Source: Tubulanus polymorphus (lineage: Eukaryota; Animalia; Nemertea). From it: a stretch of DNA of 64,000 nucleotides. Under the pieces are notes generated by a model. The model had not been told where the DNA came from, did not search any database, and saw nothing but the letters and a program-made list of their open reading frames with translations. Of the stretch, positions 356-63,247 are shown piece by piece; the first letter of the stretch is position 1; each line of letters opens with the position of its first letter. Location of the stretch: the NCBI RefSeq assembly GCF_964204645.1, contig NC_134027.1, positions 16,888,560-16,952,559 on the forward strand. Direction: 5' to 3'. The position numbers and the translations under genes are program-made.

Positions 356-377
356 TAATTTTTTTTTTGCTAAATAA

Positions 378-812
378 ATGGAAGATAAAGTTGATAATAT
401 TGATATTATTCCTCATGATATAAATAAAACTAAATTAAAAATATATTTAGAAAAACAAATATTAGAATTTGAAAGTGACTTAAAGATAAAAAAGAAAAAA
501 TAACTAAAAAGTAAAATTATATATTATTTGATTATAAGTGGTTCGGTTACAATTAGTTCTGTAATAACATTTTTAGCAATATTCAGTCCATTAACACCTT
601 TAGCTATATCAATTGGTGTGTTAGGATTAAGTTCAAGTGTTTTAACCGGTATAATTTCAAAATTAAAGATAAAAAGTAATAAAGAAAAAATTAAAACTAA
701 TATAAAAGAAATTAATAAATTAAAGAATACACTAGATTATATAATAAGTTTAAATGGCCATATAACAGTTGAAGAACAAGATAAATTATTAAAAGAATTA
801 GTTAATTATTAA
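378..812 (+). pseudogene. Two-TM membrane protein, internal stop at ~501
   Basis: Ortholog of 50329..50761; hydrophobic SGSVTISSVITFLAIFSPLTPLAISIGVLGLSSSV. Confidence 0.75.
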
Positions 813-828
813 TTTTTTAATTATATAA

Positions 829-2130
829 ATGGGGTTTCCAAAAGCTTTCCAATATAATAAATCAATTAAATATAATATTCCTGCAATAGATTTTAAGAAA
901 AATATTACATATAGAAATGTAGTTTTAAATTCATTAACTAATTTAGAAATTTATGTTACTGAATCACAGTTTTTTATTTCTAAAATGGAAAATATATTTA
1001 ATACATATGAAGTTACTTTTACTCGAGATAAATACCATATATATAAAGTAAAATCTAATATGAAATATTGGCAGAACCAATTAGATTTTGCTGTTTATTG
1101 TGCAACAACAGGATGTGGAATAAGTTGGAATGATCATTTAAATAACTTAGATAAAAATTTGAAGTATTCTGATTTAAAATTAATTCACACAATATTTAGA
1201 TTTCACACATATTTTCAAATCAGAATAATATTAAATGAATTATAATGTCCTTTACCCGGGTCTAAATATTTTAAAGAATTGGATAATAATATTAATATAT
1301 CTAAGTTTCATAAAATATGTAATGAATTTAATATAAATATTAATTCCGATTTCAGAGCGCATGGTAAATTGCAAGGTGTTGGTGAAGATTTTGAAATAAA
1401 AAGAATTGATTATATGCATAGAATTTCAGCTTATCATAATTATAAAATTGATAATAATAATGGTTGGGTTAATTTCATTTTAGAAAATAGTGAAGGTTTT
1501 ACTAAAGCTGGTATACAAAGAATAAATCAATCTATTAGAACTTATTTGATATGCATTTTAGGTGCGCAAGTTGAAACAAGATCCCCAATAATTGGAAATG
1601 ATAACACTTCATTCGATGCGCAGAAACAGTTTAAAGTATTATTTGAAGATTCAATTCATAATGATAAAAATAGATCGATTCCAGAAAACATTGTAAGATA
1701 TCAAAATTATTTAGATAAATCACATATTAGATTAAATTATTGTTTAGGCCCTAATCTATTAATTATTTCTAATGATTTAGTATTAAAGATGGGAAATATA
1801 ATTGGTTATAATAATCTAATTAAAACTGCAACAGTAAATAATTCATTTGGATTGAATGATATAAATAAAAAGATTATTACTGCTCCAAAATTAATGGAAG
1901 GTGAAAAAAATAAAAAACACATTCAATCAACAGAAACTAAAACTAATAATATCAAATTAAATAATGATTCTAAAATAAAAGATTACAATACATCAGAAAA
2001 TATTAGAACTGATAATATTCAACATGATATAATTAAACTAAATGATGATAATAAATCCCATGAAAATGCTAAATTAGCTTTAACTTGTATAGGAATTGTA
2101 ATCGGAGGAATATTATATTTTAGATTTTAA
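829..2130 (+). pseudogene. Conserved ~433-aa Polinton protein (WQNQLDFAVYCATTGCG) with C-terminal TM; internal stop 1243-1245
   Basis: Two in-frame ORFs matching 22335..23636 and 49376..50312. Confidence 0.8.
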
Positions 2131-2146
2131 TTTTTTTATTATATAA

Positions 2147-3829
2147 ATGGATGAAGAAATTCCATTGGATCCTTTAGATGAACCTGGTATAAGTGATGAA
2201 CAACAACCTGATTTTAGTGAAACAAGTTTTAATGACGGTAATGAGCCAGAATATAATACTAATTTAGGTGAAGATGATGATTATGATGATGATTATGATG
2301 GAATTAATTCCGAATTACGTGAAAAATTAATTAAATATTTACAAGCTCCTGAAAGTGGTAGAATTTCAACTAGAACAGAAAGAAAAGAATTTATGAAACT
2401 ATTAGAAAAAGAACAAGAAGAATATCCTGATAAACCCATGGAATTATATAGAATGAAATCTAGAGTAACAGATACAATTGTTAACGAATTATTGCCAAAA
2501 GTTGTAATACATGAAATTGATACTGAAGATGTTGTAGAACAAATTTTTAAAGATGACCCATATTTCACGAATAATTTAGAATTTAAAAATGATTCGTGGT
2601 ATTATAATCTTGAATTAAATAGGAATACTGTATCAATTCAATTATCTAGAATGGGTCAAGAAAATATTTTTGAACCTGGAATGCGAGCATTATCTACAAT
2701 TGAAGGTTCAAAAGGCGGTAGAGAATTTCTCAGAATTATATGGAATGCAATCGATAGAATAAATGAAGAAGAACCAATTCCTAATATTGATATAAACAAA
2801 TATTCACCATTTAAAAATCCAAATCCAAATCCTACTGATGTTGATCCAGAAATGGAAGATCATAGAGATCGATAAGATAAATTAAGATCTTCAACGCCCG
2901 AAACATCGAGAAGAGACACTCAACAAATTGATAATGATTCAAGTCAATTACAATTAACATTTGAAAAACAAATTGATAGATTAAGAGATTCAGAAGAAGA
3001 GATGAATAGTACTGGAATAAATCGAATGCAATATTTACTAGAAAAAGGATTACTTGATTTAACTGATGAAGAATTAAAACAATTTCCTGAAAAAGCACGT
3101 AGAGAAATTAAAGGTGTACAAATATCAGCTGGTGAAATTGCTAATATTAAGATGAGATTTTCTAAAATAACCATGTTAGAAAAAGAATTAGCTAATGAAA
3201 ATGAAGAATTAAAACAATTAGAATTAAATAAAAATCTTCAAGTAATAGAGGAAGCTGATTATGAAAGCAGAAAGTTAGCTTTAGTAAAAAAAATGGATGA
3301 TTTAGAATATAACATAGAATTACAAAAAGAAGAAAGGGATACATTATTAAAATCATATGATCTTAATCATATTAAAAAATTAAAAGTTATTTTTAAAGAT
3401 TTGTTGATAAAACCAGATTCTAAAATATCATTGAAAGATAGAATCAAATTATTATTTAAATTAGAAGGAATAACAATTCTTTCAATTCTAACAGCTGTAA
3501 CTATGTTATTTACAACAATTGGTTTAGCAATATCAAATGCTTTAAAATCTACTCCTACTCCAAATAAACCGGATAAACCCCCAGGCAATAATTCTATACA
3601 AGATAAAGTTAAAGATGGTTAAAAGAAATTAGCAAAATATTTATGGGAACTATCTAAAAAATCTGCTGGAGCATTGCCCGGAGTTATTGCATCAATTGTT
3701 GGTTTTATATTGAAATATGCAGGAAACATTATTAACTTTGCTGCTGAACATATTATTTTATTTTTAATTACAGTTGTAAGTGCTATTATTTTTGGGTTAG
3801 TGAATATGATATCAAAAAATATCAAGTAA
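2147..3829 (+). pseudogene. Acidic/coiled-coil protein with C-terminal hydrophobic helices, disrupted
   Basis: ORFs 2147..2875 and 3002..3622 plus frameshifted tail; C-terminus matches 47780..48202 and 20895..21245. Confidence 0.75.
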
Positions 3830-3869
3830 CCATGATAAAAAAGAAATAATTAATTTTTTTGTTAAATAA

Positions 3870-5117
3870 ATGAGTGGGAGTTATATCAATCCTTCTAAGA
3901 ATCATAGAATATCTAATGCTATTAAAGCAGACAGATCACATCATATAATTACTCATAACCCTTCTAATATCAATCCCGATGAAACTTTATATGTTAGAAT
4001 TCATAGATTAACTCAAAATACTTTTTATGTTCCAAATAGTATTTATTTATCAGCTGATATAAAAGTAATCGGTAATAATAATAATTATGTTGTTGATAAT
4101 GTTGGAAGATATTTGATTAAAAAATTAACTATAAAGATTGGTCCAGAAACAGTTTTCTCATTAGATGATTATAATTTATTTATGCATTATAAAGATTTAT
4201 GGTTAACTAAAGAAAATAGAAATAATATGATATTTCAGGGTATTCAATCGGAAAACCATAATAAATTAAGATCGGGAGCTAATGACGCAATAGTAACTCG
4301 TGCCACAGATAATTTGATTAAAAAGATTTATGGAAGCAAATATAAAATTCCATTAGACTTTGAATTGATAAATAATAATGCACCTTTATATAAATATGTA
4401 ATTCAAGAAGATATTATATTTGAGATAACATTTGCTCCTGTAAATGAAATTGTATTATCTGGCGTTGTTAAAGATATGGGTTATAAATTATCGAATATAT
4501 GTTTAGAATATGATACAGTAACTGATGAAAATATTGCAAGTATAATTCAAACTCAAAACAATCAAGGATTTTCATTATTATATGATTATATTGATAAATT
4601 TAAAACTGTAACTATTAATGCAAGTGATGAAATAATTAATGAGAATATTAACTTCCCAAGAAGATCTATTAAAGGTATATTAATATTTTTTACCATTGCA
4701 ACATATACTAATGGCGCAATAAATGTTGATAATTATTATAATCCTGAAATAACAAAAGTAGAAATAACTATCGAAGGAATAGCAAATAAAATATTTTGTC
4801 AAGGAATGAGAATGATTGATCAGTGGCCAGAAATTAGAAAACATTTTATGAATGAAAAAGTAAAATCATCTGAAAATTGTAATATTAATCAAATTGATTA
4901 TTATACCGGTAATAAATACGCATTATGGTTAGATTTTAAAACAACAGAGGATAATTCATTACATGGTTCTGGAAAAAAATTACATAACACTAAAGATGGA
5001 ATACAATTATTCTTGGCAAAGAATAAAGGAATCAAAAATTTTGAAATGCACATTTATATTATATCTGACGCGCAATTAAATATTGTAAATTCACAATTAG
5101 ATAGTGTTATGTATTAA
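3870..5117 (+). CDS. Major capsid protein (double jelly-roll, Polinton type), intact 415 aa
   Basis: Size, beta-rich pattern, motifs HNPSNINPDETLYVRI and ALWLDFKTTEDNSLHGSG; conserved position in three copies. Confidence 0.82.
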   Translation: MSGSYINPSKNHRISNAIKADRSHHIITHNPSNINPDETLYVRIHRLTQNTFYVPNSIYLSADIKVIGNNNNYVVDNVGRYLIKKLTIKIGPETVFSLDDYNLFMHYKDLWLTKENRNNMIFQGIQSENHNKLRSGANDAIVTRATDNLIKKIYGSKYKIPLDFELINNNAPLYKYVIQEDIIFEITFAPVNEIVLSGVVKDMGYKLSNICLEYDTVTDENIASIIQTQNNQGFSLLYDYIDKFKTVTINASDEIINENINFPRRSIKGILIFFTIATYTNGAINVDNYYNPEITKVEITIEGIANKIFCQGMRMIDQWPEIRKHFMNEKVKSSENCNINQIDYYTGNKYALWLDFKTTEDNSLHGSGKKLHNTKDGIQLFLAKNKGIKNFEMHIYIISDAQLNIVNSQLDSVMY

Positions 5118-5149
5118 AATTTTAACTTTAATAAATATTTATTATATAA

Positions 5150-6255
5150 ATGGAAGGTAGAATATATGAAATACAAACTCCAAGTGAAATGACAACAGAT
5201 ATATATTATATATTACCTTATGATGAATACATTAAGCATTTTGGAGATTACTTTAATCAATTCAAATATAGAATAAGTAAAATAAAAGATAATATTGAAA
5301 CTAAAATAGAAGATAAGAATGATATTGAATATAAAATAGAAGATGATATTGAAACTAAAATAGAAGATAGTAATAATATTGAAACTAAAATAGAAGATGT
5401 AACAGCATCTACATCTTATAATATACCCTCTACATATGATATTGAATCAAAAAAGATTATTATAATCCAAAATATTGTGATGTATGTAAGAACTATATAT
5501 CATATAAAAATTGGGCATCACATAAGAAATCAAAGAAACATATAGAAAAAGAAAAGAATAATAATGATTATAATATATCAGTTAGTAATATAAAAGATAA
5601 TGTTAACCCAATTGAAACTAATGATACCATAGATAATATAACAGATAATGTAATAAATAATGTTAACCCAATCGAAACTAATGATAATGATATAACAGAT
5701 AATGAAATAATTGATGATTCTAAAAAACATTGTAACATTTGTAATTTAGATATTTCTAAAAGTAATTTTTCTAAACATAAAAAATCTAAGGGGCACATAG
5801 AAAATGAAAAAGAATTAATATGTGATTATTGTAATAAAGAAATTGAACCTGTTGATAAAATTACTCATTATAAATCAAAATTACATCTAATTAATGTTTA
5901 TAAAAAAGTGGGTATGTTACCATTGTTAGATGAACCAAAGAAATATATCAAATATTTTAATCCTGAAACTAAACAATACCATATATTCTTTAAGTTGTTA
6001 TTTGATAAATTATTAGCTTATGCAGAAGATAATCCTGACCAAATATATAAATTAGCGTATAATGGACACCTAGATTTATTTAATTTATTAAATGATTTTG
6101 AATTTGATTTTGATGGTGATAATTGTAATGATTACTTTGAAAAATTAAGAATAAAAGCTGGATTAAGCGATGATGAACGTAGAATGAAGGATGAAATAGA
6201 ATTAATAAATAGGCCAAAGACTTCTGATGAATTTGATATAAACAAAGATGATTAA
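5150..6255 (+). pseudogene. Variable zinc-finger protein (CxxC..HxxxxxH units, ETKIED repeats), frameshifted
   Basis: ORFs 5150..5545 and 5908..6255 with intervening CNIC..KHKKSKGH and CDYC..H frames; positional counterpart of 43422..44135. Confidence 0.6.
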
Positions 6256-6336
6256 AAATGTTATGTTAGATTACAAATGTATTAGAAACAAAATTAGAAT
6301 AATTATTATAAAACTATTTATATATCTATAAAAATA

Positions 6337-6622
6337 TTTATATATCTATGCACTAGACGTATGAGTAAGAAAGTAAGAACCCAAGAATCCTTACCAAGAA
6401 ATATAAATTATAAACATAAATTATAAACATAAATTATAAACATAAATTATAAACATAAATTATAAACATAGTTTTAATATATAATTTATTCATTATATAT
6501 ATTTCATTTGATAATTCATATTTCTATGGACTAGACGTACGTAAGAATCCAAGATTCTTGCCAAGAAAGTAAAAAGGTAAGAATCTTACTTTCTTACGTA
6601 CGTCTAGTACATAGATATATAA
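6337..6622. repeat. Inverted repeat enclosing a short (ATAAATTATAAAC)n tandem tract between convergent genes
   Basis: tttatatatctatgcactagacgta...agtaagaaagtaag vs cttactttcttacgtacgtctagtacatagatatataaa; tandem tract ~6402-6470. Confidence 0.75.
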
Positions 6623-6655
6623 ATTAGTTTCTATAATATTCCAAATTATAAAAAT

Positions 6656-7267
6656 TTATTTTATAAATTTATATTCATAGGGAAATTGTAATCTCAGTAA
6701 TGATTTTGAACCTTTATGATTCTTTAATTTATTCATATATTCATCATGTAATTCAGTAGGTATAATTTGATTTTCTTCCAATGATTGTTGCATAGATTTT
6801 CTATCTTTGTTATAAAATAAAACTAGAAATCTTATATTCTCCCTAAAGTCCTTAACAATTGAATTATATTTTTGATTTAAAACCCATGTTGTTATCCCAA
6901 AATGTCTCCCAGAGAAAGCTAAATAACATAACTCACTTTCTCTCACTTTTGAATCATGTAAATTAGCGCAATCATCTATAATGAATAATGTATTTGATCC
7001 TTTATAAGTATCAATTGCTATTTTCATACAATTATCTAAATTTTCTTTTACTGTTTTAGGATCTAATATAATAAACTTTTTCATCTTAACTATATCTCTA
7101 TTATATGTTTTATTCATTTCATAAGTAGGAGAGAATAATATTATATTATCAAAATGATTCTTATAAATAGTTTCTAACAAATCTAATATGAAATGTGTTT
7201 TACCACAGTTTGTTACACCAGTAACTAACATATTATGCGGTTCAAATATAAATAAATCTTTATTCAT
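6656..7267 (-). CDS. A32/FtsK-like genome packaging ATPase
   Basis: Walker A GVTNCGKT, Walker B LFIIDD, GRH and downstream Q. Confidence 0.92.
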   Translation of the reverse strand: MNKDLFIFEPHNMLVTGVTNCGKTHFILDLLETIYKNHFDNIILFSPTYEMNKTYNRDIVKMKKFIILDPKTVKENLDNCMKIAIDTYKGSNTLFIIDDCANLHDSKVRESELCYLAFSGRHFGITTWVLNQKYNSIVKDFRENIRFLVLFYNKDRKSMQQSLEENQIIPTELHDEYMNKLKNHKGSKSLLRLQFPYEYKFIK

Positions 7268-8390
7268 TTATTCTCTTAATTTTACTAGATAAAATCCATT
7301 CATTAAATTTATCATCGTATCCTTTATATTTCACCAAAGAATACTTTTTTCCTTTAAGAGTTTTTGTTTTCAATACTTTTTCTATTTTGTATTCTATTTC
7401 ATCTGGATTTGGTACAAGTGATAATTCTTGTTCATAGAAATAACCTAATATTTTATCATCTTTTAGATCTTCTAATTTATAAACAAATGGTTTAGTTAAT
7501 ATTATCTTTTTAATCTTAAATATTTCTTCTGTAAAATTAGGGGTATAACCTTTATAAAAGGTTTTTCTATATTTAGATATTCTTACGTGTTGTCCTATTT
7601 TAAATTTAGGTTCTCCGAAATCATGTGTAACAAATGCTCCATATAAATTGTTCCAAACTATTTCTGAATTATCTTCTTTTCTAGCTTGTATAGGTTTCAT
7701 ATTTATAGAATTATGTTTAGAATTATTATAACCTTTCACTAAATCATCTAATATATTTATAGACTCATCGATATATTTATATGTTTCATTAGCAGTAAAA
7801 TATTTCCATATTCTAGTTTTCAATGTTTTATTAAATCTTTCTATAATAGATGCTTTTTTATCTGAGTGTGTTGAAAAATAGTCTACATCGTTATCAGATA
7901 ATAGTTTTTCGAAATGTTTGTTATAAAATTCCTTACCTTCATCAAATTGTATCTTATCTGGAATAGCTTCTTTAAATATTGATTTAAAAGCATTTGTTAC
8001 TTCTATTCCAGTTTTATTTTTGATTGGAATTGACCATGCGTATCTACTGAATATATCTATAACATTTAATATCCAGAAATATCCTTTGTTGTATTCTTCT
8101 AAGTTCTTCATGTCAATTAAATCTGCTTGCCACTGTTGATCGATATATGAAACCATAACTTTCCTTGTTAAATAAGTTTTATCCATTTTCTTGTGGATTT
8201 GATATGTTGGTTGATTTTGTAACCATGATTTTAATTCACTATATTTTATACCACCGTGTGGGTGCCGTACGGCACCATTACCATTTTCATTATCAGATTT
8301 AATTTTATTCCATAATTCTGAAACGTTAGAATATGATACTTCACTTTCTGGGTTATAATATAAATCTCTTAAATATTGTTCTTTTTTCAT
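7260..8390 (-). CDS. Retroviral-like (rve) DDE integrase with C-terminal chromodomain
   Basis: WQADLIDM, IQFDEGKEF, ASIIERFNKTLK; YKIEKVL...LVKYKGYDDKFNEWI. Confidence 0.95.
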   Translation of the reverse strand: MKKEQYLRDLYYNPESEVSYSNVSELWNKIKSDNENGNGAVRHPHGGIKYSELKSWLQNQPTYQIHKKMDKTYLTRKVMVSYIDQQWQADLIDMKNLEEYNKGYFWILNVIDIFSRYAWSIPIKNKTGIEVTNAFKSIFKEAIPDKIQFDEGKEFYNKHFEKLLSDNDVDYFSTHSDKKASIIERFNKTLKTRIWKYFTANETYKYIDESINILDDLVKGYNNSKHNSINMKPIQARKEDNSEIVWNNLYGAFVTHDFGEPKFKIGQHVRISKYRKTFYKGYTPNFTEEIFKIKKIILTKPFVYKLEDLKDDKILGYFYEQELSLVPNPDEIEYKIEKVLKTKTLKGKKYSLVKYKGYDDKFNEWILSSKIKRINE

Positions 8391-8396
8391 TCTATT

Positions 8397-9064
8397 TTAA
8401 TCCATTAATAATAATTTAGATTTAGTTTCAATGACTTTATGATTTGACTTATTTTCTGGTATGATAGGTTTATTATCATTGGAATCATCTTTATCATCGG
8501 ATTTGAATTTTGATTTATATATTACACCAGAGAATATAATAACTGTTACTAATCCAATTGTAATATATAATTTATAATTACTTCCAGCATTAGAAGGATT
8601 AGATGGATTATTATTTGAATCAATATCAGATAATTTCTGTGATTCATTTATATCAGTTAATTTCTTTTTCTTAGCTTTTTTTAATTCTGAAGATTTTTTA
8701 CCTAATTCTCTTGCCCATTTAATTTGTTACTCGGATCTAACCTTTTTCTTAACATCGTCACTCATTTATTTTAGTTAATTTTTGTTCTGGTTCATTTTCT
8801 GTTTCACCGTTTGGTTGTAGTACAGCGTCATCTGTTTCGTTCTTACCTGATTTATATTCCATAGGCTTGATATTCGAAAATGTTATGACACCAGTAGAAA
8901 TTAATGTCATAACCGATCCTAATTGAAATGAAGCATAACCAACCCATTTTTGTAATTCAGTCATAACTAAGTAGTCATTTTTCAAATCACTATATAATTT
9001 ATTTTCATCATCAATTGGCATTAACTGGTTACATAACTTAGAATAACATTTGACTATACCATCA
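8397..9064 (-). pseudogene. Remnants of the 196-aa and 119-aa (single-TM) accessory genes
   Basis: Match 40319..40909 (5' part deleted) and 40920..41279 (internal stop). Confidence 0.75.
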
Positions 9065-9247
9065 AGTTAAAGAACTCTAGTATTGACTACTGATACTAGC
9101 TATTTGAATTTAAAGATTTTCTATTTGAATCTATTCAAAATATAAAGTATTCTCTTTTTGAAAAGAAAGTATTAAAAATATAATAGAATTCACTAGCTAG
9201 TTGAAGTTATTGTTTTTTTATTATATTTTATTTAAATTAGGATTTAG

Positions 9248-9326
9248 ATTATCTCACTACTATTGTCTATCTATTAGGAGCAGTAACTATAACTGTCCTG
9301 ATAAGTCATTTCGGATTCTTGATAAT
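9248..9326 (-). ncRNA. Conserved structured motif, copy in A
   Basis: attatc-aagaatccgaaatgac-ttatc-aggacagt..actgctcc..gatag..agtagtga-gataat; stems covary with copies in B and C. Confidence 0.55.
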
Positions 9327-10159
9327 AAATCCTAAAACTGAAAATAAATTCAAAGAAACGACTGGTGGAAATACTATTTCATAAACACACATATATTTTA
9401 TTCTACAATCATTATCGATTTCCACATTCCAAGCCGCTCCAGAGAGGAGCGGTAAGGTATGCGTGGAATGCAGGAATCAATAAAGTATAATACAACATCT
9501 GTCACTGTGTGTCATTAACAACAGCTTAATGACGCAATTGACATTCCGACAAACGTAATGCATTGGAAGCCTATACAGTATGGCTAAACTGCTACAGTCT
9601 CATGAGTTGAAATATCCATTATTTCTGATTCCACGTCCATCTATCTTCACTTTCTTGATTCAATAGTCTTCATTTAGTTATCTAAAAGATAAATATCTAG
9701 CTTAGAATAAAACTAACTTGAAGTTGTAGTTGTAAAATATTAATTACAACACTTAAACATGACCATTTTGTGGCGCATCTTACCAGGATAAGTTTTACAT
9801 GTTTAGCGTTTTCCAACGCCTTAATAACAACAAAAACAGTACTTACATTTATAACTGTAAACTCCTAAAATTGTGTTTATAGAGAGAATATCCTATACGT
9901 TCCTATGCTTATGTGCTGCGCGTTTATAACTGCCAGTTATTCACTAGCTAAACACCGTCTGGTGCAACAGATGTTCCTTCTTTTGTAATATAATTGATTA
10001 ATCCTTTTCAACTGAAATAGCACGTTCGATCAATATTCAAATGAGGTGCGCCCTATTCAACTGAATATGAAATGCGGCACAGATGTTTTTGTAAACAACC
10101 TAATACAATTACATACAGGCGGTTTGACATAGATCGAGAGAAACCGGTTTTCTAAGCGT

Positions 10160-10812
10160 TTAACATTCAACGTATTTTTCATTATGTGTTGAGTTCCATA
10201 ATTCAACAAATGTCTTTGCTTTATCCAGTTGATGTAAATATAACTGTATATCTAGTTTATTAGATTTAATTATGTTTTCCTTCTTTTCTAAAGGTCTTAA
10301 ATTTCTCCAACCCCAAATAAGTTTTTTATTGTATTCATCATTCATGTTAAATTTAGAAATCGGCAACACGTGATCAATATGAAAGTATTCACCATAATTA
10401 TCTATATTCATTTTATCATCGAATTGAAATATAATCCATGATTTGAGAAATTCATCTGAACAACCCAATAGATTAGATAGTGTTTCTGAATGCGTTTCTT
10501 TGTTGAATAATTGTGTTAATCTAGACCTTAAGCATTGTTTTAATCTAAAATTAAGATCTGTTGATATCCTTCTCTCATATATTCTGCCATATAATAATTA
10601 TAATGTTCTATATTATCTTCTCGATATTGTTTGGTATATAGTTTAGTGCAAGTTTTACAACAATATTGAAAACCATCTTTGCTAATCTTACGCTTACTAA
10701 ATTCTGTTAATGATTTATCTAATTCACATTTAGAACACTTCTTGTAATATATATTTATAACACCAGCAGTGTTATTTGTAATATTGATAATTTGTGGTTG
10801 TTCTGGTTCCAT
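10160..10812 (-). pseudogene. HNH endonuclease with N-terminal CxxC zinc ribbon, frameshifted
   Basis: KKCSKC..DGFQYCCKTC; HIDHVLP..NLRPLEKKENIIKSNK; ortholog of 39348..40016. Confidence 0.85.
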
Positions 10813-10889
10813 TTATTATATGTATTTTTTACTAAATTGGTTAATATTTTAGAATCCTTTTCCATTTCTTCGACCAACGTCATCCTTTT

Positions 10890-11141
10890 TCATTCCTCGC
10901 TGCTTTTGATAAATTGTTTCGATTCCTTGATATCAAATTCCTCAACGTATTGTTCATTATTTGGATCATTATTCCATAATTCAATAAATTTCTTTGCCTT
11001 TGTTAACTGTTCTGAATATAACTGTAAATATTCTAGTTTCAATTTATTCTCTAAATGTGTTTTAGTTTTATTGTGTCTTGCTTTTTGGGAGTTATTTACA
11101 TTGATATTACATGTTGGACAGTAGTACTTATTTGCTTCCAT
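10890..11141 (-). CDS. Small zinc-finger ORF starting inside the TIR
   Basis: YYCPTCN...HNKTKTH; first ~38 aa equal the pPolB N-terminus of copy C. Confidence 0.6.
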   Translation of the reverse strand: MEANKYYCPTCNINVNNSQKARHNKTKTHLENKLKLEYLQLYSEQLTKAKKFIELWNNDPNNEQYVEEFDIKESKQFIKSSEE

Positions 11142-11672
11142 TTTAATACTAAATTTTTTATTAAAATTGATTTTAGAAGTTCAATGATTTATATCATGCA
11201 TTATTTCAATCACACTTTACTAACACTTTTTATGTTTAAACATCTAACTCACACAAATATAAATATTGAAATAATGTTGTAAATATATACTTTTATATTG
11301 AATAATCTGTCAATTTAAATGTTATTCATTTATATGAATATTTTAAGAGTAATAGGGATAATAGGCTTTCAGGTTAAAGGTTGAATGGTCGAGTTCATTA
11401 ATAACAAAACATTAAAAGTAATTTAAAACTATAATATATTTTCATAACCGTGTGTATTTCAGTTGAATAATAGAATAATTATTATTATTAAAATATATTT
11501 GATTATATGCTTTTTAAATTATTGATATCTTAGAATAAATATTTAGTTATAATATAAAATACACACGGTTATGAAAATATATTATAGTTTTAAATTACTT
11601 TTAATGTTACTTTTGTTTTTAATGAACTCGACCGTTCGACCTTTGATTTGAAAGCCTATTATCCCTATTACT
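11028..11672. repeat. Terminal inverted repeat of A, with fold-back 11348-11672
   Basis: Homologous to 56887-57611; AGTAATAGGGATAATAGGCTTTCA ... TGAAAGCCTATTATCCCTATTACT. Confidence 0.88.
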
Positions 11673-13791: not shown

Positions 13792-15889
<2,098 letters not shown>

Positions 15890-16600: not shown

Positions 16601-16629
16601 ATTTTTAAAAAATAAATTAATAAAAATAA

Positions 16630-16707
16630 TGAATATCTAGAATCCGAAATGACTTATCTGGACAATTTATTTGCTCCGCATAGATAGGTAAAGTAGTGAG
16701 ATATTCA
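16630..16707 (+). ncRNA. Conserved structured motif, copy in B
   Basis: tgaatatc/gatattca outer stem, acttatct/agataggt, ggacaa/ttgctcc; conserved ATCCGAAATGAC and AGTAGTGA. Confidence 0.55.
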
Positions 16708-17560: not shown

Positions 17561-17577
17561 TTATATAACAAATAAAT

Positions 17578-19599: not shown

Positions 19600-19628
19600 T
19601 TATATATCGTTAATTTTAACTTTATATT

Positions 19629-49359: not shown

Positions 49360-49375
49360 TTACATAATAAAAAAA

Positions 49376-50312: not shown

Positions 50313-50328
50313 TTATATAACTAAAAAA

Positions 50329-50761
50329 TTAATAATTAACTAATTCTTTTAATAATTTATCTTGTTCTTCAACTGTTATATGACCATTTAAACTTATTAT
50401 ATAATCTAGTGTGTTCTTCAATTTATTAATTTCTTTTATATTAGTTTTAATTTTTTCTTTATTACTTTTTATATTTAATTTTGAACTTATACCGGTTAAA
50501 ACACTTGAACTTAATCCTAACACACCAATTGATATAGCTAAAGGTGTTAATGGACTGAATATTGCTAGAAATGTTATTACAGAACTAATTGTAACCGAAC
50601 CACTTATAATCAAATAATATATAATTTTAGATTTTAAATATTTTTTCTTTTTTATCTTTAAGTCACTTTCAAATTCTAATATTTGTTTTTCTAAATATAT
50701 TTTTAATTTAGTTTTATTTATATCATGAGGAATAAACAATATTATCAACTTTATCTTCCAT
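50329..50761 (-). CDS. Two-TM membrane protein (likely true start 50761, small indel)
   Basis: Hydrophobic hairpin; orthologs in A and B. Confidence 0.72.
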
Positions 50762-50782
50762 TTATTTAGCAAAAAAATATTA

Positions 50783-51204
50783 CTAATTAGTAAACTTATA
50801 AGCAACAAATATAACAATAACAGTTCCGCCTAAAATCCAAATTATTTCATATTTCTTCTGTTCATTACTTGGGGTATAATAATCTGATAATCTAGGTTTG
50901 TATAGATGTAATTTTTCTTTATTTGTTACTGCGTTATATAAACTCATTGCATCATCAACTGATTGAAAATCTCTATGTGAAATCTTCTGATCATATAATT
51001 CTTTATTGATGTAATCCATATAGTTTTGTCTCTTTTCTCTATATTCTTCTGCAGCTTTATTATATTTATCTAATGCTAAGTTATGTCTTCTTTGTTCTCC
51101 TAATGAACTATTTTTATCAATATGTTTAAATAAATAACCGCCACCAGTAAATGCTAAATTTTAACAATTGCTGATCCTATAATAGTTATAATTGCAGAAG
51201 CCAT
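50783..51204 (-). pseudogene. 140-aa membrane protein, frameshift near 51160
   Basis: Ortholog of 24103..24525. Confidence 0.78.
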
Positions 51205-51228
51205 TTATTTAGCAAAAAAATTATGCAT

Positions 51229-51450
51229 TCATATGGGAGGAATATATTTTTTTTTTTCTAAATAATCAATTGTTAAATTAGATAAAGTAACTGCTAATGT
51301 TAATTTTAAAATATCATTTATATCAAATCTATCAACATTAACACTTCCCATTTTAAATACTTTTTTTAATACCATTGAATAACCAACAGTTCCAACTGAT
51401 AGTAATGCGCCTTTATATAATCCAGTTATTATCCACTTATTATCACTCAT
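51229..51450 (-). CDS. 73-aa hydrophobic protein
   Basis: Ortholog of 24550..24771. Confidence 0.78.
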   Translation of the reverse strand: MSDNKWIITGLYKGALLSVGTVGYSMVLKKVFKMGSVNVDRFDINDILKLTLAVTLSNLTIDYLEKKKYIPPI

Positions 51451-51807
51451 TTATTTATCAAAGAAATTACTATCATCAAAATATTTAGTTATCTTATTCA
51501 TGATTAATTCAACATTTATTTCATTACTAGTTTCATTTGTATATATTTCAATTATTATTTTTTTAATATCATCGATGATAAAATCTTCATCTAATTCATA
51601 AAATCTTAAAGATTCTCTAATTAAATTAGTAATCTTTTCTACATTTAAAGTTTCTTTATCTATTGTTGTTTCATACTCAAATGTTGTTTCATTAGAAAAT
51701 GCAATATTTTTGATATGTGTAATTACATCATTAATGTTAAATTTCATTTCTTTCTCACGTTTAAAATCAAACCCAAAACATATACTCGGTCCAACAGTTA
51801 TATTCAT
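51451..51807 (-). CDS. Hypothetical protein
   Basis: Ortholog of 24814..25131. Confidence 0.75.
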   Translation of the reverse strand: MNITVGPSICFGFDFKREKEMKFNINDVITHIKNIAFSNETTFEYETTIDKETLNVEKITNLIRESLRFYELDEDFIIDDIKKIIIEIYTNETSNEINVELIMNKITKYFDDSNFFDK

Positions 51808-51823
51808 TTATATAGGTGAAAAA

Positions 51824-52576
51824 TTACTCTTTACATCTTATAACTAATTCATAAATTACAGGAAAGTTATTCAAATCAATTAAGTATCCATTATGATTTC
51901 TAATTTCTAATCTAAAATTATTAAAATGTGGAATACAAGGTTTGAAATCACATTCAGCTAAATTATAATTTATTTGCGTTCCAAATTGTTTAACATTTTT
52001 TATTGGTAAAATATTTAATATACTAGAATTACAAATTGTATCTTTAGTTGCTTCGAAAGTTTTTGTAGGCTCGATTAAATTGCAATAAATATAAAAGTGT
52101 GTAAAAGGTATTATATTTGTATAAGTATCAATATTTGAATAATGTCTATCCGGAAGAATTCCAAACAGTTTAGCTAAAGATTTTCTTACTAGAAATCTAT
52201 GTTGTTCATTAGTTAACTTTATTCTTATTTTATTCGAACTATCACTTTTGATGAATTTAATTTCAAATCGAGCAGCTGAGCCCATTTTTAAACGAGCTCT
52301 TTTATTAATTTCTTGCACTAATGTTTCTAAATTATATAATCCTGGTTTTAGATAAAGATGAAACCATTTATTCAAATTTCTATCATAAATTTTAAAAGCT
52401 AAATCAAGACTTTTATTCGATATATTATGAAAAGAATTACATGAACTTATATTAACTAATTTTAAATCAACACAATTCTTAAATTCTCTTTCTAATTGTA
52501 CTAATAAATTATGTGATTTATAATTTGTAAGTTTTCTAGAATCTACAAATATTCTGTATTCTTTTAATTCTACCAT
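51824..52576 (-). CDS. Minor capsid protein (penton, single jelly-roll)
   Basis: IFVDSR N-terminus, PGLYN, YIYCNLI, ILNILP, FRLEIRNHNGYLIDLNNFPVIYELVI C-terminus typical of Polinton/PLV pentons. Confidence 0.75.
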   Translation of the reverse strand: MVELKEYRIFVDSRKLTNYKSHNLLVQLEREFKNCVDLKLVNISSCNSFHNISNKSLDLAFKIYDRNLNKWFHLYLKPGLYNLETLVQEINKRARLKMGSAARFEIKFIKSDSSNKIRIKLTNEQHRFLVRKSLAKLFGILPDRHYSNIDTYTNIIPFTHFYIYCNLIEPTKTFEATKDTICNSSILNILPIKNVKQFGTQINYNLAECDFKPCIPHFNNFRLEIRNHNGYLIDLNNFPVIYELVIRCKE

Positions 52577-52593
52577 TTATTTTACATATTTTC

Positions 52594-52947
52594 TCATTCA
52601 AAATCTATTTCATGGTGCCCTTTTTCATTCTTACCTTTGTATACGAAATAGAAATCTCCAGAACATAATTCTTCTAAATCTTCACTTGATAATCTATGAA
52701 ATCTATCAGGTAAATATGTTCTGAATTTATATGTATTTCCTTTTAATCCTTCATATTCTAAGTGTATAACTAATTTATCTCCATAGTTATTAGTAACTGT
52801 ATCAATATTTGTAATTAGATATTTCTTATGGATTGTTAATTCTGTTAACTTTTTGAATTTATAATCTACAGATTTTACATTTGTAGTATCTTTTATTCTA
52901 TCTAGAAATGATTTGTTTTTCTCACTGTGTGCTTGTTTACTCTCCAT
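52594..52947 (-). CDS. Small beta-rich protein next to pPolB (possible ssDNA-binding)
   Basis: YGDKLVIHL..TYLPDRF; homolog at 16275-16600. Confidence 0.65.
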   Translation of the reverse strand: MESKQAHSEKNKSFLDRIKDTTNVKSVDYKFKKLTELTIHKKYLITNIDTVTNNYGDKLVIHLEYEGLKGNTYKFRTYLPDRFHRLSSEDLEELCSGDFYFVYKGKNEKGHHEIDFE

Positions 52948-52976
52948 TTTAATAACATATTTTTATTAAAATTTGA

Positions 52977-55900
52977 TTAACACGTTAGAATTCTTTTCAT
53001 TATCTCGTCCTCTTTTGTTTCTTCTCTTTTAAATTTTAAGTATTCATCTAAATTGCAACCATAAGCAAATGTATGAATTCCATCATCTAAAATATATCTT
53101 TTATCATCAAATGGGTTTAGACTTATCTTTTCAATTTCTTCAATAAACATTTCATGATCTTCAGATCTTAAACATCTCATCTTATGTTTTCTAACTTCTT
53201 TTTTGAATATACAATTGATGTAATCTTTGAAATGAATATTCTTTTCTACTACACTTTTGGTTATTCCTTTTAACTTTGTAGCTTCATGTTCTTTAGTTTT
53301 ATATGAATACATTTTAGATCTAATACCAATGAATTCAATCATTTCTTCACCAACTAATTCATCTTTGAATTTACCGGGAACTTTTTTATTATCATTGCTA
53401 AACAATTCATGATTTTTAGGATAATTACTGAAATCAAAATGATGTTTTAATGTTTTTAAATCATCATTTATGTTATCAGTTTTTATCTTTAATATGTAAG
53501 AATCGGTATCAAAATATAGGATTTCTATATGTTTTTCTCCAAAAAGTGGTTGTAATATATTATAATAGAATTCATACATTAGTAATTTTGATAATTCTAA
53601 AACTGAAGCGCCAACATAGATTGGTTTATTAAATTTCATTGATGTTCTTCTCATCTTAACTGCGGCTAAATTTTCATCAAATATTCTGTTACCAATGAAC
53701 TTAGGATATGTTTGTAAATGTCTAATTCTTTTACCATTACTGACTAACTCAATATCATTTCTATTTCTAATATTTTCACAAGTCTTACCATAGAATGCAT
53801 TATTCATTAACTTGAAGAAATCTTTCTCGAAATCAGTTTTAGCTTTAGTTCTCTGTTTGGTGTTAAAATCTATATATTTTTCTAACCACTTAGATTGGCT
53901 GAATGAAATATATCTATGTACTTTTTTTAGAACCATTCCTTGTTTTAGATAAAACTTCAACATTCTATAATGTACTACATAATTATATTTATCTTCTTGA
54001 GTTACCATTAACTTTTCTGTATGAATATGATTTTCGGGTTTAATTCTTTTTTGGTAATTTGATAATTCTTCATGAGTTACAGTTTTATGTTCTGGACAGT
54101 ATGCTAGATTTCTAGATTTAAATTTTTTATCTTCAGGATATTCTAAATCTACAACAAAGAAGTAACCAGTATCTGAATCATCTGCAATATCTAGGATTCT
54201 TTTCTTCCAATCAAATTTATCATTATTTTCATTCTGTAAAACTTCAGTTAATTCAAATACTCCATAAGGTTGTGGTTCCATCATTGCCCAACCATACAAA
54301 TTATTTGCATCTATATATAATAACTTATATCCGGGGTTATCATTTACATTGAAATATCTATCACCTAATACACCTGAAACTCCTGCTCTTATAGATTTTT
54401 CAAATAATAGTAATTGATCTATATTTGTTAACAAATCCATTTTTATATCTGTAAATTTTAATCCACAATCCCATGTTAATCCTGGTGATGAATAACAATG
54501 ACAAGGATCAATATTGAAATATTTTAGGTTTACATCTCTAAACCTTTCGAATATATCGGTTAATGATAATACATCTGATTTTAAATATAAATCTACTAAT
54601 TGCCCATGATTTTCTATTTTGAAATGATTCCAAATATTCAATGTTCTATTATATACTTCATCTTTAACATATTCATTTTTTAATTCATCATAGAATTGTT
54701 CTTTCAATAATTCAGTTATGTTAAAATCATTATGATTTTTATAGAAAGAATATGGAATTGCTCCTTTATATCTCATTAATTGAAAATCATCATTATTTGG
54801 GTAGTGCTGCTTTAATATTTTTAATTCATCATCAACTAATGATTTTGATAAGTTATCTAATGAACTGTTTAAAAATCTATATGAATCTATAAATCTTAGA
54901 CACCCAAATTGGAATGATATATAATTCTCAGATGTTTTAGCTAACATTCTAAATTTATAAGTTGGTATTTTATCTTTTGATCTATTTGAATTTAATCTTT
55001 CTATTTCATTATTAATTTCTTCTATTTATGGCATAACTGTTTGATAAATAAATGCGCATCATATCCAGATAGATTATGAAATATAACTGGTACAAAGTTA
55101 ATTTTCTTAGCTTGTAAGTTACAATTCTCATGTGCGGCGCCTCTGAACTTTCCATTCAAATGATCATGGTCTCTTACTTTTTTATCTTTATAATTTAATA
55201 TCTTTTCACAATAATAACATTTACCTGCTAACACAAATTCTTCTTTATCTTTTTCTGTGATTATAATTTCTATATTTGTATTCAATAATTTACTAAATCT
55301 TATTTCATATTCAATTAATAAGTCACAAAAATGATTGATAACATTTTCATTTCTGTAATGATAATATTCACTTTCAATTAGTTCTGGATAATCAGATTTT
55401 ATATATAACCCGAAAGCAGCAGCTGATTGATGAATCTTTTTAATTGTATTTGTTTTTGGTGGTTCATCTGAAAAATTATTTTCATTAGAATTTAATTTCT
55501 TTCTTTTATAATATATTTCTTTTCTATCTTGATCAGTTAATTCTTTATTTAATGATTCAAAATCTCCATATATTACAAATGGTACTTTATTTTTGTAATC
55601 ATATTTTTTTAATTCTAATATTTTATCCTTTTCATTTGGTAAAACTAATTTACAATAATCATGATCTTCACATAATTGTTTATGATTTAATAATGTACTT
55701 TCATTACTGAATCTATGTAAACATTTTCTACAAAGATATATTTTATGGTGATCATTTTCTGATTTAAAAAATAAATCTATTTGTTTAATCCACATATAAT
55801 GATTCTCATAATATAATATATCTATAACATCGTTTGAATCATAATCTTTTGATAGGTATAAAGGATCTAATGTATAATGTTTTATATTGTTACCTTTTGT

Positions 55901-57000
55901 ATTTGGTAATTTGATTAAATCAAATACATTTATTCTTAAATTATTATCTCTTTCTATCTTTGGGACGTTTTTAATTCTAACAGGATACTTATCTATCTTA
56001 TAATTATTTTCAAATGGTTTATAATGAGTTAATCTAAAACTATGTGTAATATCTTCTGTTGGGTGTAAACAACTTATTATAGCCCATAGAAAACATTTAT
56101 CATCTTCATTTTGTATATTTATAACAGCATTAGTTTTAAATGGTAGTTTAATATAACTCGATGCTTCAATATCTGGTTCTTTATAATATAATACATTATT
56201 TTCATCTATTGGTTTTGATTTAGTTAACTTATTATATTTTGTGTTATAAACATGTAAAGTCATAAATATTATCTCATCAAATATTAAACTAGATCCTTCA
56301 AAATATTTCTCTTCTATTTTAGTTTTTACTTCATTATAACATTTATCTAATTTATGATCTATATGTTGTTTAGATATAATATGTTGTGAATGAGAATTTA
56401 TATTATATATTGGTTTATCTTCAGATTTTATGAATTTAACTTTAGAAGATATACTTATTTTAGGATATTCAACATCAGTTATTATTTTTATTATTTCTTT
56501 CATATTTTCTAAATGTTTTTTATTTTCTTCTAATGTTTTTCCTTTATGAAATTTAAACTCAATAGCTGCTGGACCAATATCACTTTTAAATGCTTCGGTT
56601 ATCTCTATATCTTTTTTATTATCTAATGAATTACATTCTTACATCTTCCATGTATGGTCTTTTATTGTTTAATTTATGCTTTTAATTGTCTTATGTTTCT
56701 TATCGTTATCATTATCAAAATAATCTTCACCTAAAATATCATTATTCTTATTTCTAATATGACTTTTAGATTTTAAATGTTCTTTATAATATCTTTATCA
56801 CTGAATGATTGATTACATGTATCACATTTGTATGTTTCTTTTTCATTCTTTAATTCATCTAATTTAGTTTCTAATATATCATCTTTATATTCTAGTTTCA
56901 ATTTATTCTCTAAATGTGTTTTAGTTTTATTGTGTCTTGCTTTTTGGGATTTATCTACAATGATATTACATGTTGGACAGTAGTACTTATTTCCTTCCAT
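52977..57000 (-). pseudogene. polB: Protein-primed PolB, intein-free, broken by stops/frameshifts
   Basis: FVIYGDFES, FHNLSGYD, YIDANNLYGWAM, KLMNNAFYGKT, YFDTDSY. Confidence 0.95.
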
Positions 57001-57611
57001 TTTAATACTAATTTTTCTTTTTTTAATTGATTTTAGAAGTTCAATGATTTATATCATGTATTATTTCAATCACACTTTACCAACACTTTTAATGTTTAAA
57101 CATCTAACTCACACAAATATAAATATTGAAATAATGTTGTAAATATATACTTTTATATTGAATAATCTGTCAATTTAAATGTTATTCATTTATATGAATA
57201 TTTTAAGAGTAATAGGGGTAATGGGCTTTCATATCAAATGTTGAATGGTCGAGTTCATTAAAAACAAATATTAAAAGTAATTTAAAACTATAATATATTT
57301 TCATAACCGTGTGTATTTCAGTTGAATAATAGAATTATTATTATTATTTGAATATATTTGATTATATGAATTTGTGTATTGTAAATAAATCAATTGGTCG
57401 CGGAGCGGAGCGGTAGCGAAGTGGAGCGACCAATTGATTTAATACAATATGCTTTTTAAATTATTGATATCTTAGAATAAATATTCAGTTATAATATAAA
57501 ATACACACGGTTATGAAAATATATTATAGTTTTAAATTACTTTTAATGTTTTGTTTTTTAATGAGCTCGACCTTTCGACCTTTGGTATGAAAGCCCATTA
57601 CCCCTATTACT
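56887..57611. repeat. Right TIR of C with fold-back 57208-57611
   Basis: Reverse complement of 37370-38093. Confidence 0.93.
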
Positions 57612-60213: not shown

Positions 60214-60328
60214 AGTAATAGGGAATATGTTGTTTCAAGTCAGAGGTCGAGAGGTCGAGCTCACTCAACCTCTCTATCTCTGACTTGAAACAACATATTC
60301 CCTATTACTCCTAATAATTTCATATAAA

Positions 60329-60964
60329 TGTTGCCCACTGGCAACAGTTTGTCTTTCAGGTCTGTTAAGTTTCAGTGAATTTAGTTTATTATCTTTTTTG
60401 GTCTTTATTTTGCGTGCTTTATGTTAGTATGTTGTTGTTAGGTAGTATTGGTAAGCTGTTGGTAAGCTGTTGGTAAGCTGTTTTGTGTGGTTTGAATTCA
60501 TATTAATCTGGTATTATGTAGTGTTGGTGAGCTGTTTTGTGTGGTTTGAATTCATATAAACTGATATTGTGTAGTGTAGGTAAGCTGTTTCATGGGTGGT
60601 TTAATTTTCCTTTACGTTTGCTCTGTACAACAGTACTTCTGGGCATTCGTCACGGTATTCTGATAAAGGAAAGACATAGGCTCTCTACAACTAAAAAGAG
60701 TTGTAAGTTAAAATTATATATTTCTAAATGTCAACTATTTATTGCATTTATCGAGGCCTTTTTTTCTCCGTAATTTGAATTATTATTTATCAAATTTTTA
60801 GGGTTTAATTGTGTATTTTTCAGTTAACCACTCGCTCGTATTCACTGTGTATCTGTAACCTGTACGTTTCACACATTCGAAAATAAAGTGCGTTAGACAT
60901 TTTATGATTGTAGCCGTCTTGTCCTCGATTTGATAAGTTCTATGTCCAACTCTGGTTTGGGACA
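60329..60964 (+). mobile_element. Probable solo LTR inserted in D
   Basis: TGTTGCCC...GGGACA ends, flanking TAAA duplication, AATAAA near 3' end; removal restores catataaatgaa as in C. Confidence 0.6.
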
Positions 60965-61187
60965 TAAATGAACATTATTTACATGAATTTCATATATTTT
61001 AAAATGAATTATATGTTAATCATAAAAGTGTGAGTAAAGTGTGAGTAAATAATTCATATTTTAACAGATTTCGAATAAAAATATAAGTAAAATAAATGGA
61101 TAATTAAAAGAATATAAAATTGTGAGCAAAGTGTGATTGAAATAATTCATATTTTAACATTGAATATTTATATTTGAATGAGTTTTA

Positions 61188-61841
61188 ATGGAAGTTTTGT
61201 TATAAAAATGAAGAAAGAAGAAGAAAAACCTAAATTCAAAAATCGAAATAAATGAAACCAATAAATTATTTTCACGGTTTAACATTAGAAATTATATTTC
61301 AGCAACAAATTTAGTGTCCGCAAGACATTATAAAATCGATAACATTACTATGATTAATCAAATATCATCAAATGAAACATATTTAATTACTGAACTAATT
61401 GATACTTTTGATAATGGCGTTAAAAATCCTAAAGTATTCAATACAGTTTTAAATTTTAAAGAACTTTAGATGAAAACATAATTAATATTCTTAAAACTCC
61501 TTTCAATGAAAGAAAAAGTGATATAATACTTGCTAAAGATTACAATGATTTGATTAACTTATGAATTGAAAAAAGACAATTATATTATTTCAATTTTGAT
61601 AATAAACGAATTATCTATAATGAAAATTCATCGAATATTGGAATTCAATGTGAATTAGATAATGAAAAATCAAAGATGTTGCAGTTCAATGTAATTTAGA
61701 TGATTAATTTAGAAAATTCAATCCTAAAGAAAAAGTGTATTGTTATTGCGGAGGCAAATATTTAAAATCACATAAATCAAAGCATTATCAGACAATCAAA
61801 CATATCGAATATGAAAAGAGTAATAATTCTATATTGAAATA
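61188..61841 (+). pseudogene. Degraded inverted copy of 63248..63847
   Basis: Same DNA in opposite orientation with frameshifts; tail CYCGGKY..HYQTIKH. Confidence 0.75.
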
Positions 61842-61928
61842 AGATTAAGCTGTATGAGTAATTGGAAAATTTCAAATATCATTACTCAAAAATAATAATT
61901 TAACTCTAAATATAAAAAAAAAGATATT

Positions 61929-62049
61929 ATAGCGTGAATAGAAATCAAGAAGATTTAAATTAAAAAAAACATAAGTTAAATAAGTTAGTATTAGATAAAG
62001 CAACTTATTGTTTTTTCATTTAAATCTTTTTGATTTCTATTCACGCTAT
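61929..62049. repeat. AT-rich hairpin
   Basis: atagcgtgaatagaaatcaa.aagatttaaat / atttaaatctt.ttgatttctattcacgctat. Confidence 0.8.
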
Positions 62050-62504
62050 TGGTTAACAAGAATTGACTAGAATTCAAATAGATTTAATAAGAAATTAAAT
62101 AACTTTAACTGTTAGTACCACTCTTGTATTATTTCATTGTTTCTCTAATTGAATAAGCCAACCAACTAATATCACTCTTGTATTATTCTAGTCAAATGTA
62201 AAGAATTACAATATCTTGAATGAATTAAAACATAAATTACTTCTGTGACTTCATTTTCAGAAATAAAGCATAATATATATTTAATACATTAATACGTATT
62301 TAATACATTAATACGTATTTGATACGTATTGAATACGTATTTAATACATTGATACCACAAACCCCCTTTTTTAACATAAGTATAATTTACTCATTTTCAT
62401 ACATTTCAACTAAAATATTTTATATTTTCAGCTAATTTAACAGTCGATTTCTTATTTTGATTCATATAATTTTTCATCAAGTTCATGAATATACATGTGA
62501 TTCC

Positions 62505-62756
62505 TTAATGATCTTTTATTTTATATCTTTTATTACATATTTCACAGCATATAATATTATTCAATCTATCTGAAATATAATTCATATTTTCTATTAATTC
62601 AGCGTATCTTATTTTACAAGAATCATAAAATTCTAACAACTGTTTTATACTATAAATTGAAAAAGAAAGTAAACCTGAAATCATAATAATTGATTTAATA
62701 TTGTGTTGATTTTTATATATTAGATGTAATATTTCAAATACCTTATTTTCACTCAT
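62505..62756 (-). CDS. Small hydrophobic protein with CxxC
   Basis: 83-aa ORF in unique core of D. Confidence 0.45.
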   Translation of the reverse strand: MSENKVFEILHLIYKNQHNIKSIIMISGLLSFSIYSIKQLLEFYDSCKIRYAELIENMNYISDRLNNIICCEICNKRYKIKDH

Positions 62757-62803
62757 TTTTGTAGTTAAAATATATAGAATAAATTAAATTAAAAGGTGCT
62801 GGT

Positions 62804-63025
62804 CTAATCCTCTAATTCTTTTAAATCATTAACTTTTTTATTGTTATTCTTTCTGTGATTGTTTCCATTTAACTTCTTTATCTTTTTACTCGATTTATTA
62901 TTTTCAGTCATCAAATCTTTTGAAATATTCTTATAGTAAAAATATAATGCAGCCAATATTAATCCTCCAGCAACTAAATAATGTTTCAAATCACTTTTCC
63001 GAGTTGGAATGCTGGAATCATCCAT
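62804..63025 (-). CDS. Small single-TM basic protein
   Basis: YLVAGGLILAALYFYY; starts TTTTTTT-CTTAAA-TAAATG like family genes. Confidence 0.6.
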   Translation of the reverse strand: MDDSSIPTRKSDLKHYLVAGGLILAALYFYYKNISKDLMTENNKSSKKIKKLNGNNHRKNNNKKVNDLKELED

Positions 63026-63247
63026 TTATTTAAGAAAAAAATTAATGAATTGATAAATATTTAATATTTTAGAAATATTTAACTTTCATAAGTTTCAAAT
63101 CAGATAACAATTAAACTTACTACCTAACAGTTATTCATTAACTAATTTCTCAATGCTATAACTACTATATATTTGAAACATACAGCTTAATCTTATTTCA
63201 ATATAGAATTATTATTCTTTTCATATTCGATATGTTTGATAATGTTT

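Follow-up and report, generated by a model that had tools for sequence, protein, structure and literature searches.

Polinton elements in the window

The window analysed here, a stretch of 64,000 nt from Tubulanus polymorphus (NC_134027.1, positions 16,888,560-16,952,559; genome of 268 Mb, in which Wnt genes mark the host as an animal), carries integrated copies of an AT-rich Polinton family whose genes mostly start in the motif TAAATG, often behind a run of T. This arrangement is probably a late promoter for a poxvirus-type helper polymerase, and the elements would then likely be virophage-like parasites. Element A (1..11672) extends beyond the left end of the window and encodes an intact double jelly-roll major capsid protein of 415 aa (3870..5117, + strand), the start of which is overlapped by an example of the putative promoter, with T-run, spacer and TAAATG (3849..3872, +). 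On the minus strand of this element lie the A32-type packaging ATPase (6656..7267, PF04665), which starts in TAAATG, and an rve integrase with a chromodomain (7260..8390), which in this subtype does not. Element B (16231..32428, approximate ends) belongs to a related subfamily and has many broken genes. Among them are a zinc-finger and VLTF3-like gene with a TAAATG start (25973..27290, +), broken here and open over 429-441 aa in other copies, and a frame-broken gene for a family-B DNA polymerase of the protein-primed type (pPolB) with a TAAATG start and an intein in motif C (27322..32343, -). Element D (37370..57611), named C in the first-pass annotation, is full-length and has 725-bp terminal inverted repeats of 98% identity and the flanks AGCAGG/AGCTGG. 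Its minus strand encodes the minor capsid (penton) protein (51824..52576, TAAATG start), a 117-aa protein (52594..52947, TAAAATG start) and the adjoining frame-broken pPolB (52977..57000), the 5' end of which lies in TAAAATG inside the terminal repeat. Element F (60214..64000) is a short derivative with 96-bp terminal palindromes; it ends about 344 bp to the right of the window and has a TAAATG gene at 63025.

Judged by their sequence, the elements are young Polintons. They combine a pPolB (PF03175, E 1.9e-19), an rve integrase (PF00665) with target duplications of 6 bp in 4/4 full elements checked, AG..CT terminal inverted repeats and the set of capsid, penton and A32 genes. The capsid model (pLDDT 82) has its best fold match in PBCV-1 (E 3e-17); PBCV-1 and iridovirus rank above mavirus (rank 43), and the capsid is not of the virophage type (Virophaviricetes). 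The best fold match of the penton model (pLDDT 69) is the mavirus penton (E 4e-8). No protease family matched any of the family's open reading frames (ORFs), several of which are still unnamed, and the adenovirus-type cysteine protease of group 1 Mavericks was not recovered. The family likely shares its broad group with those animal Polintons that fall outside Mavericks of groups 1 and 2 (related to Aquintoviricetes, bioRxiv 10.64898/2026.06.19.733378; Polinton-3_NV/N1A_NV; here and below, papers are cited from the accessible parts of their text), because a bivalve-named capsid homologue stands at 37% identity, no protease was found and the capsid fold is closest to PBCV-1.

The ends of the elements are imperfect palindromes of 96-410 bp with a GC-rich loop (11348-11672, 37370-37773, 57208-57611 and 60214-60309). 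That of element A measures 325 bp, and the left one of element D (404 bp, +), which is mirrored by the right one on the minus strand, folds as a single long hairpin (z -17.9). Flip/flop isomers were not seen among 30 loci: none was flipped, 25 had the same orientation and five could not be assigned. Terminal palindromes are also described in Halocafeteria elements, mostly without pPolB (10.64898/2026.07.28.741278), whereas in the T. polymorphus family they accompany pPolB.

A first look through the genome gave 1146 candidates for the capsid gene, which are not copy numbers, and the 40 that were scored lie at 95-100% identity. About a thousand copies would, we infer, make up several percent of the genome. 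The listed family copies cluster mid-contig (G000 C1 12.6-19.3 Mb, C3 12.7-20.1 Mb and C4 10.1-18.3 Mb), which is perhaps a pericentromeric location. The VLTF3-like gene is restricted to one subfamily, with 63 matches among 150 scored and 228 candidates; its family assignment has an Atlas support of 0.91-0.93, and a sequence search for the VLTF3 domain gave no match. The intein (Hint plus LAGLIDADG; 27720-28769 in the window and L081:6955-8775) is missing from some pPolB copies. It had been described as giant-virus-type: the three matches nearest to it are inteins of pPolB, and PF00136 is carried by 105 of the 120 best matches, which places its relatives apparently mostly within RNA-primed family-B polymerases, while the giant-virus label itself is what we infer, most of these relatives being unnamed.

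The TAAATG start motif

All 30 start codons that had been reported to lie in TAAATG do so, each on the strand of an ORF; with three to four copies of one family in the window, these sites represent 18 non-homologous gene groups. The reported T-run was also recovered, including at non-homologous genes, with at least five T within -20..-6 in 18/30 starts, and a T stands at -12 in 26/30. The variant TAAAATG had been assigned to pPolB and its small neighbour, which is right for element D (57000 and 52947), but the pPolB of element B (32343) starts in TAAATG. Fragment E (35336..36464, +), whose motifs suggest remnants of another Maverick, one piece resembling a capsid and one a cysteine protease, had been contrasted with the family. 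It has no TAAATG starts and no Pfam match, but it is broken and hence a weak control. Altogether TAAATG occurs 156 times in the window. Internal ATGs were discarded as a control set, as TAA is an in-frame stop and cannot precede them in frame.

For a count independent of the listed sites, ORFs of at least 50 aa from the window plus 40 further genome pieces of 10 kb each (41 pieces; 781 ORFs) were clustered by N-terminal homology, and families were retained by a filter blind to start context (at least seven copies, a median of at least 70 aa, not shadowed by a longer ORF). Sixteen of the 20 families picked by this rule start in TAAATG, against 103/1259 (8.2%) of the other first-ATG-after-stop sites (binomial p 1.4e-14), and the maximum in 20,000 shuffles was 8/20. 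Two of the 20 families seem to be antisense artefacts, one with and one without the motif, and excluding both leaves 15/18. The three exceptions are the integrase, which is mixed (6/17 copies with TAAATG), and the two TAAAATG genes. Across copies, TAAATG was found at 20/20 capsid, 15/16 ATPase and 10/17 penton starts. The TAAATG motif is real and specific, and the enrichment over background that had been proposed is borne out by both the shuffles and the first-ATG null.

Upstream of the motif, the most conserved base is a T at -12 (14/15 host families, p(max) 0.0008). The same peak is present in close relatives (25/27, p(max) <0.0002) and in relatives at middle distance (18/22, p(max) 0.006), and it lies nine bases before the T of TAAAT and ten before its first A. 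In vaccinia late promoters, TAAAT(G) overlies the start codon and the tenth base further upstream is a conserved T (PMC11980589), a position within a base of the family's peak. Two marks of a poxvirus late promoter are present, the TAAAT overlapping the start codon and the conserved T about ten bases upstream. Vaccinia intermediate promoters consist of TAAA and an A-rich upstream part (PMC11980589, PMC5294985), the vaccinia polymerase itself reads TAAA (PMC12917281), and slippage at TAAA yields poly(A) leaders (PMC6211774). The likeness extends to the T-rich character of the element about ten bases upstream and to the TAAAA variant on some genes. In contrast to vaccinia, the motif here stands on an integrated element of 18 kb, on which an RNA polymerase gene was not found.

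The T at -3 breaks the Kozak rule. Host Kozak context was checked as an alternative source of the motif and does not fit, with a purine at -3 in 3/18 family starts vs 5/5 host histone starts; the corresponding counts are 15/15 in a sister family from the same host and 53/80 in the ORFs of an endogenous virus, both described below. A translational or compositional feature, be it coupling of stop and start, overlap with an AATAAA poly(A) signal that belongs to the preceding gene, or AT bias, is very improbable and largely refuted. TAA is indeed the stop codon of the upstream gene in two families (9/15 and 3/16 copies), and AATAAA occurs within AAATAAATG. However, most tandem genes are 16-32 nt apart, and divergent and terminal genes also carry TAAATG, the divergent pairs being spaced by 24-30 nt in the layout CATTTA..TAAATG. 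The motif contains no AG and hence no splice acceptor, which also counts against such a feature. Depletion of splice donors and of TTTTTNT did not separate the groups compared.

Relatives and a sister family in the same host

Sixty-two metagenome loci, each with a capsid alignment, were fetched, and start contexts were compared in 26 of them, picked by length with one per lineage. The distribution of the motif is bimodal. Relatives with at least 50% capsid identity have TAAATG in 27/30 and 22/27 ORFs, also at 40-44% GC, with the short contig L157 (0/2) as the exception, and a more distant group has it in 14/16. Clade I has it in 1/29 (AT-rich) and 0/45 (GC-rich) ORFs, a further AT-rich outgroup in 0/8, and outgroups at 26-30% GC are without it. 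The motif is not explained by AT content, as it persists in relatives at 40-44% GC and is missing from AT-rich outgroups. This also removes AT content from the support that had been claimed for a helper, and it weighs against the compositional explanation. In clade II, the lineages L155 and L154/L156 have no TAAATG and show TATAG in 5/13 and 4/8 cases. The tree is a quick one that does not settle the base of clade II, and the order of gain and loss is not derivable from it.

Several side observations concern these relatives. Other motifs were seen in clade I, namely AAAATG at 19/29 AT-rich starts (L158, L159, L160, L163) and TTGAA in 14/45 GC-rich upstream regions (L164, L167, L183), possibly stop codons. 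One of the close relatives with TAAATG starts carries the gene for a deoxynucleoside kinase (L142:10340-10981; PF01712, E 1.7e-31). Capsid relatives were found neither in the viral contig collection nor in phages, and the capsid search of prokaryote genome bins returned one contig. A locus in an archaeal genome bin (L139) holds a Polinton fragment of the same capsid group and is likely contamination.

A genome search with the L155 capsid identified a sister family of four copies with the same gene set (G000:C7:11.50 Mb, C1:20.16 Mb, C1:16.68 Mb and C8:3.99 Mb; L282-L288, L018). Its capsid is 59-60% identical to that of L155 and 42% to that of the window family, and its GC content is 49%. Its termini are tandem repeats ending in ACTACT. 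Fifteen starts were picked by hand, 14 of them by homology or position and one uncertain, after one retrotransposon start had been dropped. None of the 15 has TAAATG, while TATAG precedes 11/15 (0.74 expected) and a T-run with WATA 13/15 (0.74 expected). The distance from the first base of this motif to the ATG is 6-15 nt, which is too short for a TATA box of polymerase II. African swine fever virus (ASFV) uses TA(+1)TA as its late initiator, with a median leader of 9 nt, and TANA as its early one (PMC7163114), and the TATAG of the sister family fits the late initiator. As the sister family has another motif in the same host, the start context is set by the lineage of the element and not by the host.

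That host RNA polymerase II reads the motif, perhaps together with the VLTF3-like factor, or that the motif is a relic in a plain transposon, is quite unlikely. In favour of this, the more than 1000 first-look candidates and the near identity of the copies suggest that germline integration is frequent. A matching helper was also not found in the genome, and TATATAAA looks like a TATA box. On the other side, a TATA box touching the ATG would put the transcript start inside the gene (spacing about 24-30 nt), a T at -3 suits host-type leaders poorly, only a minority of copies has the VLTF3-like gene (228 vs 1146 candidates for the capsid), and the sister family uses another motif within the same host.

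Candidate helpers and the proposed mechanism

Scans of the genome for RNA polymerase subunits returned the three host genes, which are split by introns, and a single viral pair without introns. The pair lies within a gene-dense endogenous virus of 114 kb and 51% GC (G000:C8, about 4,523,700-4,638,000; L220-L231), which is young and has inverted repeats of 12.7 kb that are >99% identical. It encodes PolB, A32, a poly(A) polymerase, a YqaJ nuclease, helicases and a weak match to a cap methyltransferase. Only five of its proteins have matches with E <1e-30, and most of its ORFs have no Pfam match. Its polymerase subunits match 8q3b/8xx4 best, which we take to be the ASFV enzyme, with a profile score of 154 bits vs 49 for 6rfl, presumably the vaccinia enzyme. 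The virus is a very divergent, asfarvirus-like lineage. No capsid gene was identified in it, two candidate capsid ORFs being without a structure match; relatives were not found in the viral contig collection, and a single literature search gave nothing on it.

The promoters of this virus do not match the window family and provide a modest match for the sister family, as far as motifs can tell. WATAG is present in 27/80 upstream regions (8.2 expected; 0/17 for other host ORFs), and the architecture of T-run plus TA in 10/80 (2.6 expected, maximum 6). Codon use of the virus correlates at 0.21 with the sister family and at -0.39 with the AT-rich family, which is largely a GC effect.

These data bear on the possibility that the elements are transcribed by a helper other than a poxvirus, such as a giant virus (asfarvirus-like or another) or a linear plasmid that encodes a polymerase, with an enzyme accepting TAAAT, an alternative that we regard as unlikely. 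The architecture of T-run plus TA shared with the 114-kb virus would suit it, the ASFV early initiator TANA is compatible with TAAA (PMC7163114), and yeast linear plasmids have a TAAAN initiator and poly(A) leaders (PMC6211774). A fragment from a giant-virus bin (L262), picked by one match, has TAAATG at 6/12 starts, which means that the helper need not be a poxvirus. By contrast, the 114-kb virus has TAAATG at 0/80 starts and TAAAT[GA] at 7 vs 6.4 expected, and it is for poxvirus late genes that TAAAT is described as strictly overlapping the ATG (PMC5294985, PMC11980589).

A poxvirus-type helper polymerase thus remains the probable reader of the motif. The proposal of transcription by a pox-like or other nucleocytoplasmic large DNA virus is strongly favoured, on comparative grounds, by the motif spacing, the T at -3, the conservation throughout the clade, the swapped motif of the sister family and the relatives of the intein. 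Several observations weigh against it. The genome scans turned up no polymerase of pox type (a helper need not be integrated), and the sole viral-type pair found there is asfarvirus-like and belongs to the virus without TAAATG starts. The PF04451 and PF03295 searches of the genome gave nothing, yet their positive controls were also silent, and one RNA run, chosen by guess, gave two tiny matches, which count neither for nor against it. Among 21 viral contigs picked by motif, TAAATG is frequent in the non-pox fragment L262, with 0-3 in the others. The sister-family matrix matches only 5/80 promoters of the 114-kb virus (shuffle mean 0.76, maximum 4) and has its T-run further upstream, which makes this a modest pairing. 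A run of five T is absent from 12/30 window sites, the T peak of the far relatives stands at -14 and not -12 (p 0.03), and the vaccinia T position, taken from a single sentence of a review, may be off by one base. Upstream stop codons account in part for the AA at -18/-17. Depletion of internal AATAAA is seen neither in the family nor in the AT-rich outgroup of clade I, so that this test does not discriminate. The comparison groups were defined after the motif had been seen. Finally, dependence on a helper has to be squared with so high a copy number.

Under the proposed mechanism, the copies would integrate by their own integrase, leaving the 6-bp duplication, and remain silent up to the arrival of an infecting helper. 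The helper polymerase would start within TAAAT and slip, adding a poly(A) leader that restores an A at -3, and the genomic T would thereby be tolerated. The TAAAATG genes, pPolB and the 117-aa gene, may form an intermediate-like class, and the VLTF3-like protein may help nuclear copies to meet a cytoplasmic polymerase. The GC-rich sister family would likewise be tuned to an asfarvirus-like helper. The wider reading, which we advance tentatively and with somewhat less than even confidence, is that this entire animal Polinton lineage lives as endogenous parasites of virophage-like character, which change helper through promoter swaps. The genome would then hold about a thousand copies for a poxvirus-type virus still to be discovered, and a few GC-rich ones for the young and almost complete asfarvirus-like virus integrated alongside them.

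Comparable systems have been described. In Cafeteria, the types of endogenous mavirus-like elements (EMALEs) differ in GC content and promoter motif, which is read as different giant-virus partners (PMC8547959), and the TAAATG and TATAG families in one host mirror these types. Mavirus and the EMALEs are also integrated pPolB/rve elements, and the T. polymorphus penton fold is closest to that of mavirus. They differ in that the present elements are found in an animal, use poxvirus-type TAAATG (window family) and asfarvirus-type TATAG (sister family) instead of TCTA and have another capsid lineage, their helpers being postulated. The Polinton-like viruses (PLVs) from entomopoxvirus occlusion bodies have been proposed as parasites of poxviruses in animals (Barth et al., PMC11296320); unlike the present elements, they are about 12 kb long, have a protease and lack rve, and the terms 'promoter' and 'TAAAT' are absent from the accessible text of that paper. 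The yeast plasmids pGKL1/2 are AT-rich pPolB elements with a TAAAN initiator and a pox-like polymerase, one element being helped by another, but they have no capsid, are not integrated, carry an early-type upstream element and include a helper with its own polymerase (PMC6211774).

The virions of animal Polintons have never been seen, and their expression and spread are a long-standing question (10.64898/2026.06.19.733378). The term 'promoter' is absent from the accessible text of the adintovirus (PMC8502044), coral (10.1101/2023.10.06.561300) and PLV framework (10.64898/2026.06.19.733378) papers. No report of TAAATG promoters in Polintons was found in the literature searched, with subscription papers and bioRxiv supplements lying beyond that search. 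A helper-type promoter on most genes would be a simple and testable answer to how animal Polintons are activated; it would carry promoter matching beyond protist virophages, to animals and to helpers of pox and asfar type, and it predicts a poxvirus-type virus, as yet unknown, in this host group. If the wider reading is true, the large DNA viruses infecting a given invertebrate host would be predictable from promoter type, and inherited antiviral defence could be a role of the arrays.

The remaining features of the window are insertions and repeats. Element D is interrupted by an insertion with a GIY-YIG domain (44548..46867, -), which is probably Penelope-like. Between elements A and B lies a retrotransposon protease fragment (13792..15369), adjoined by a long tandem repeat of triplet type (15517..15846).

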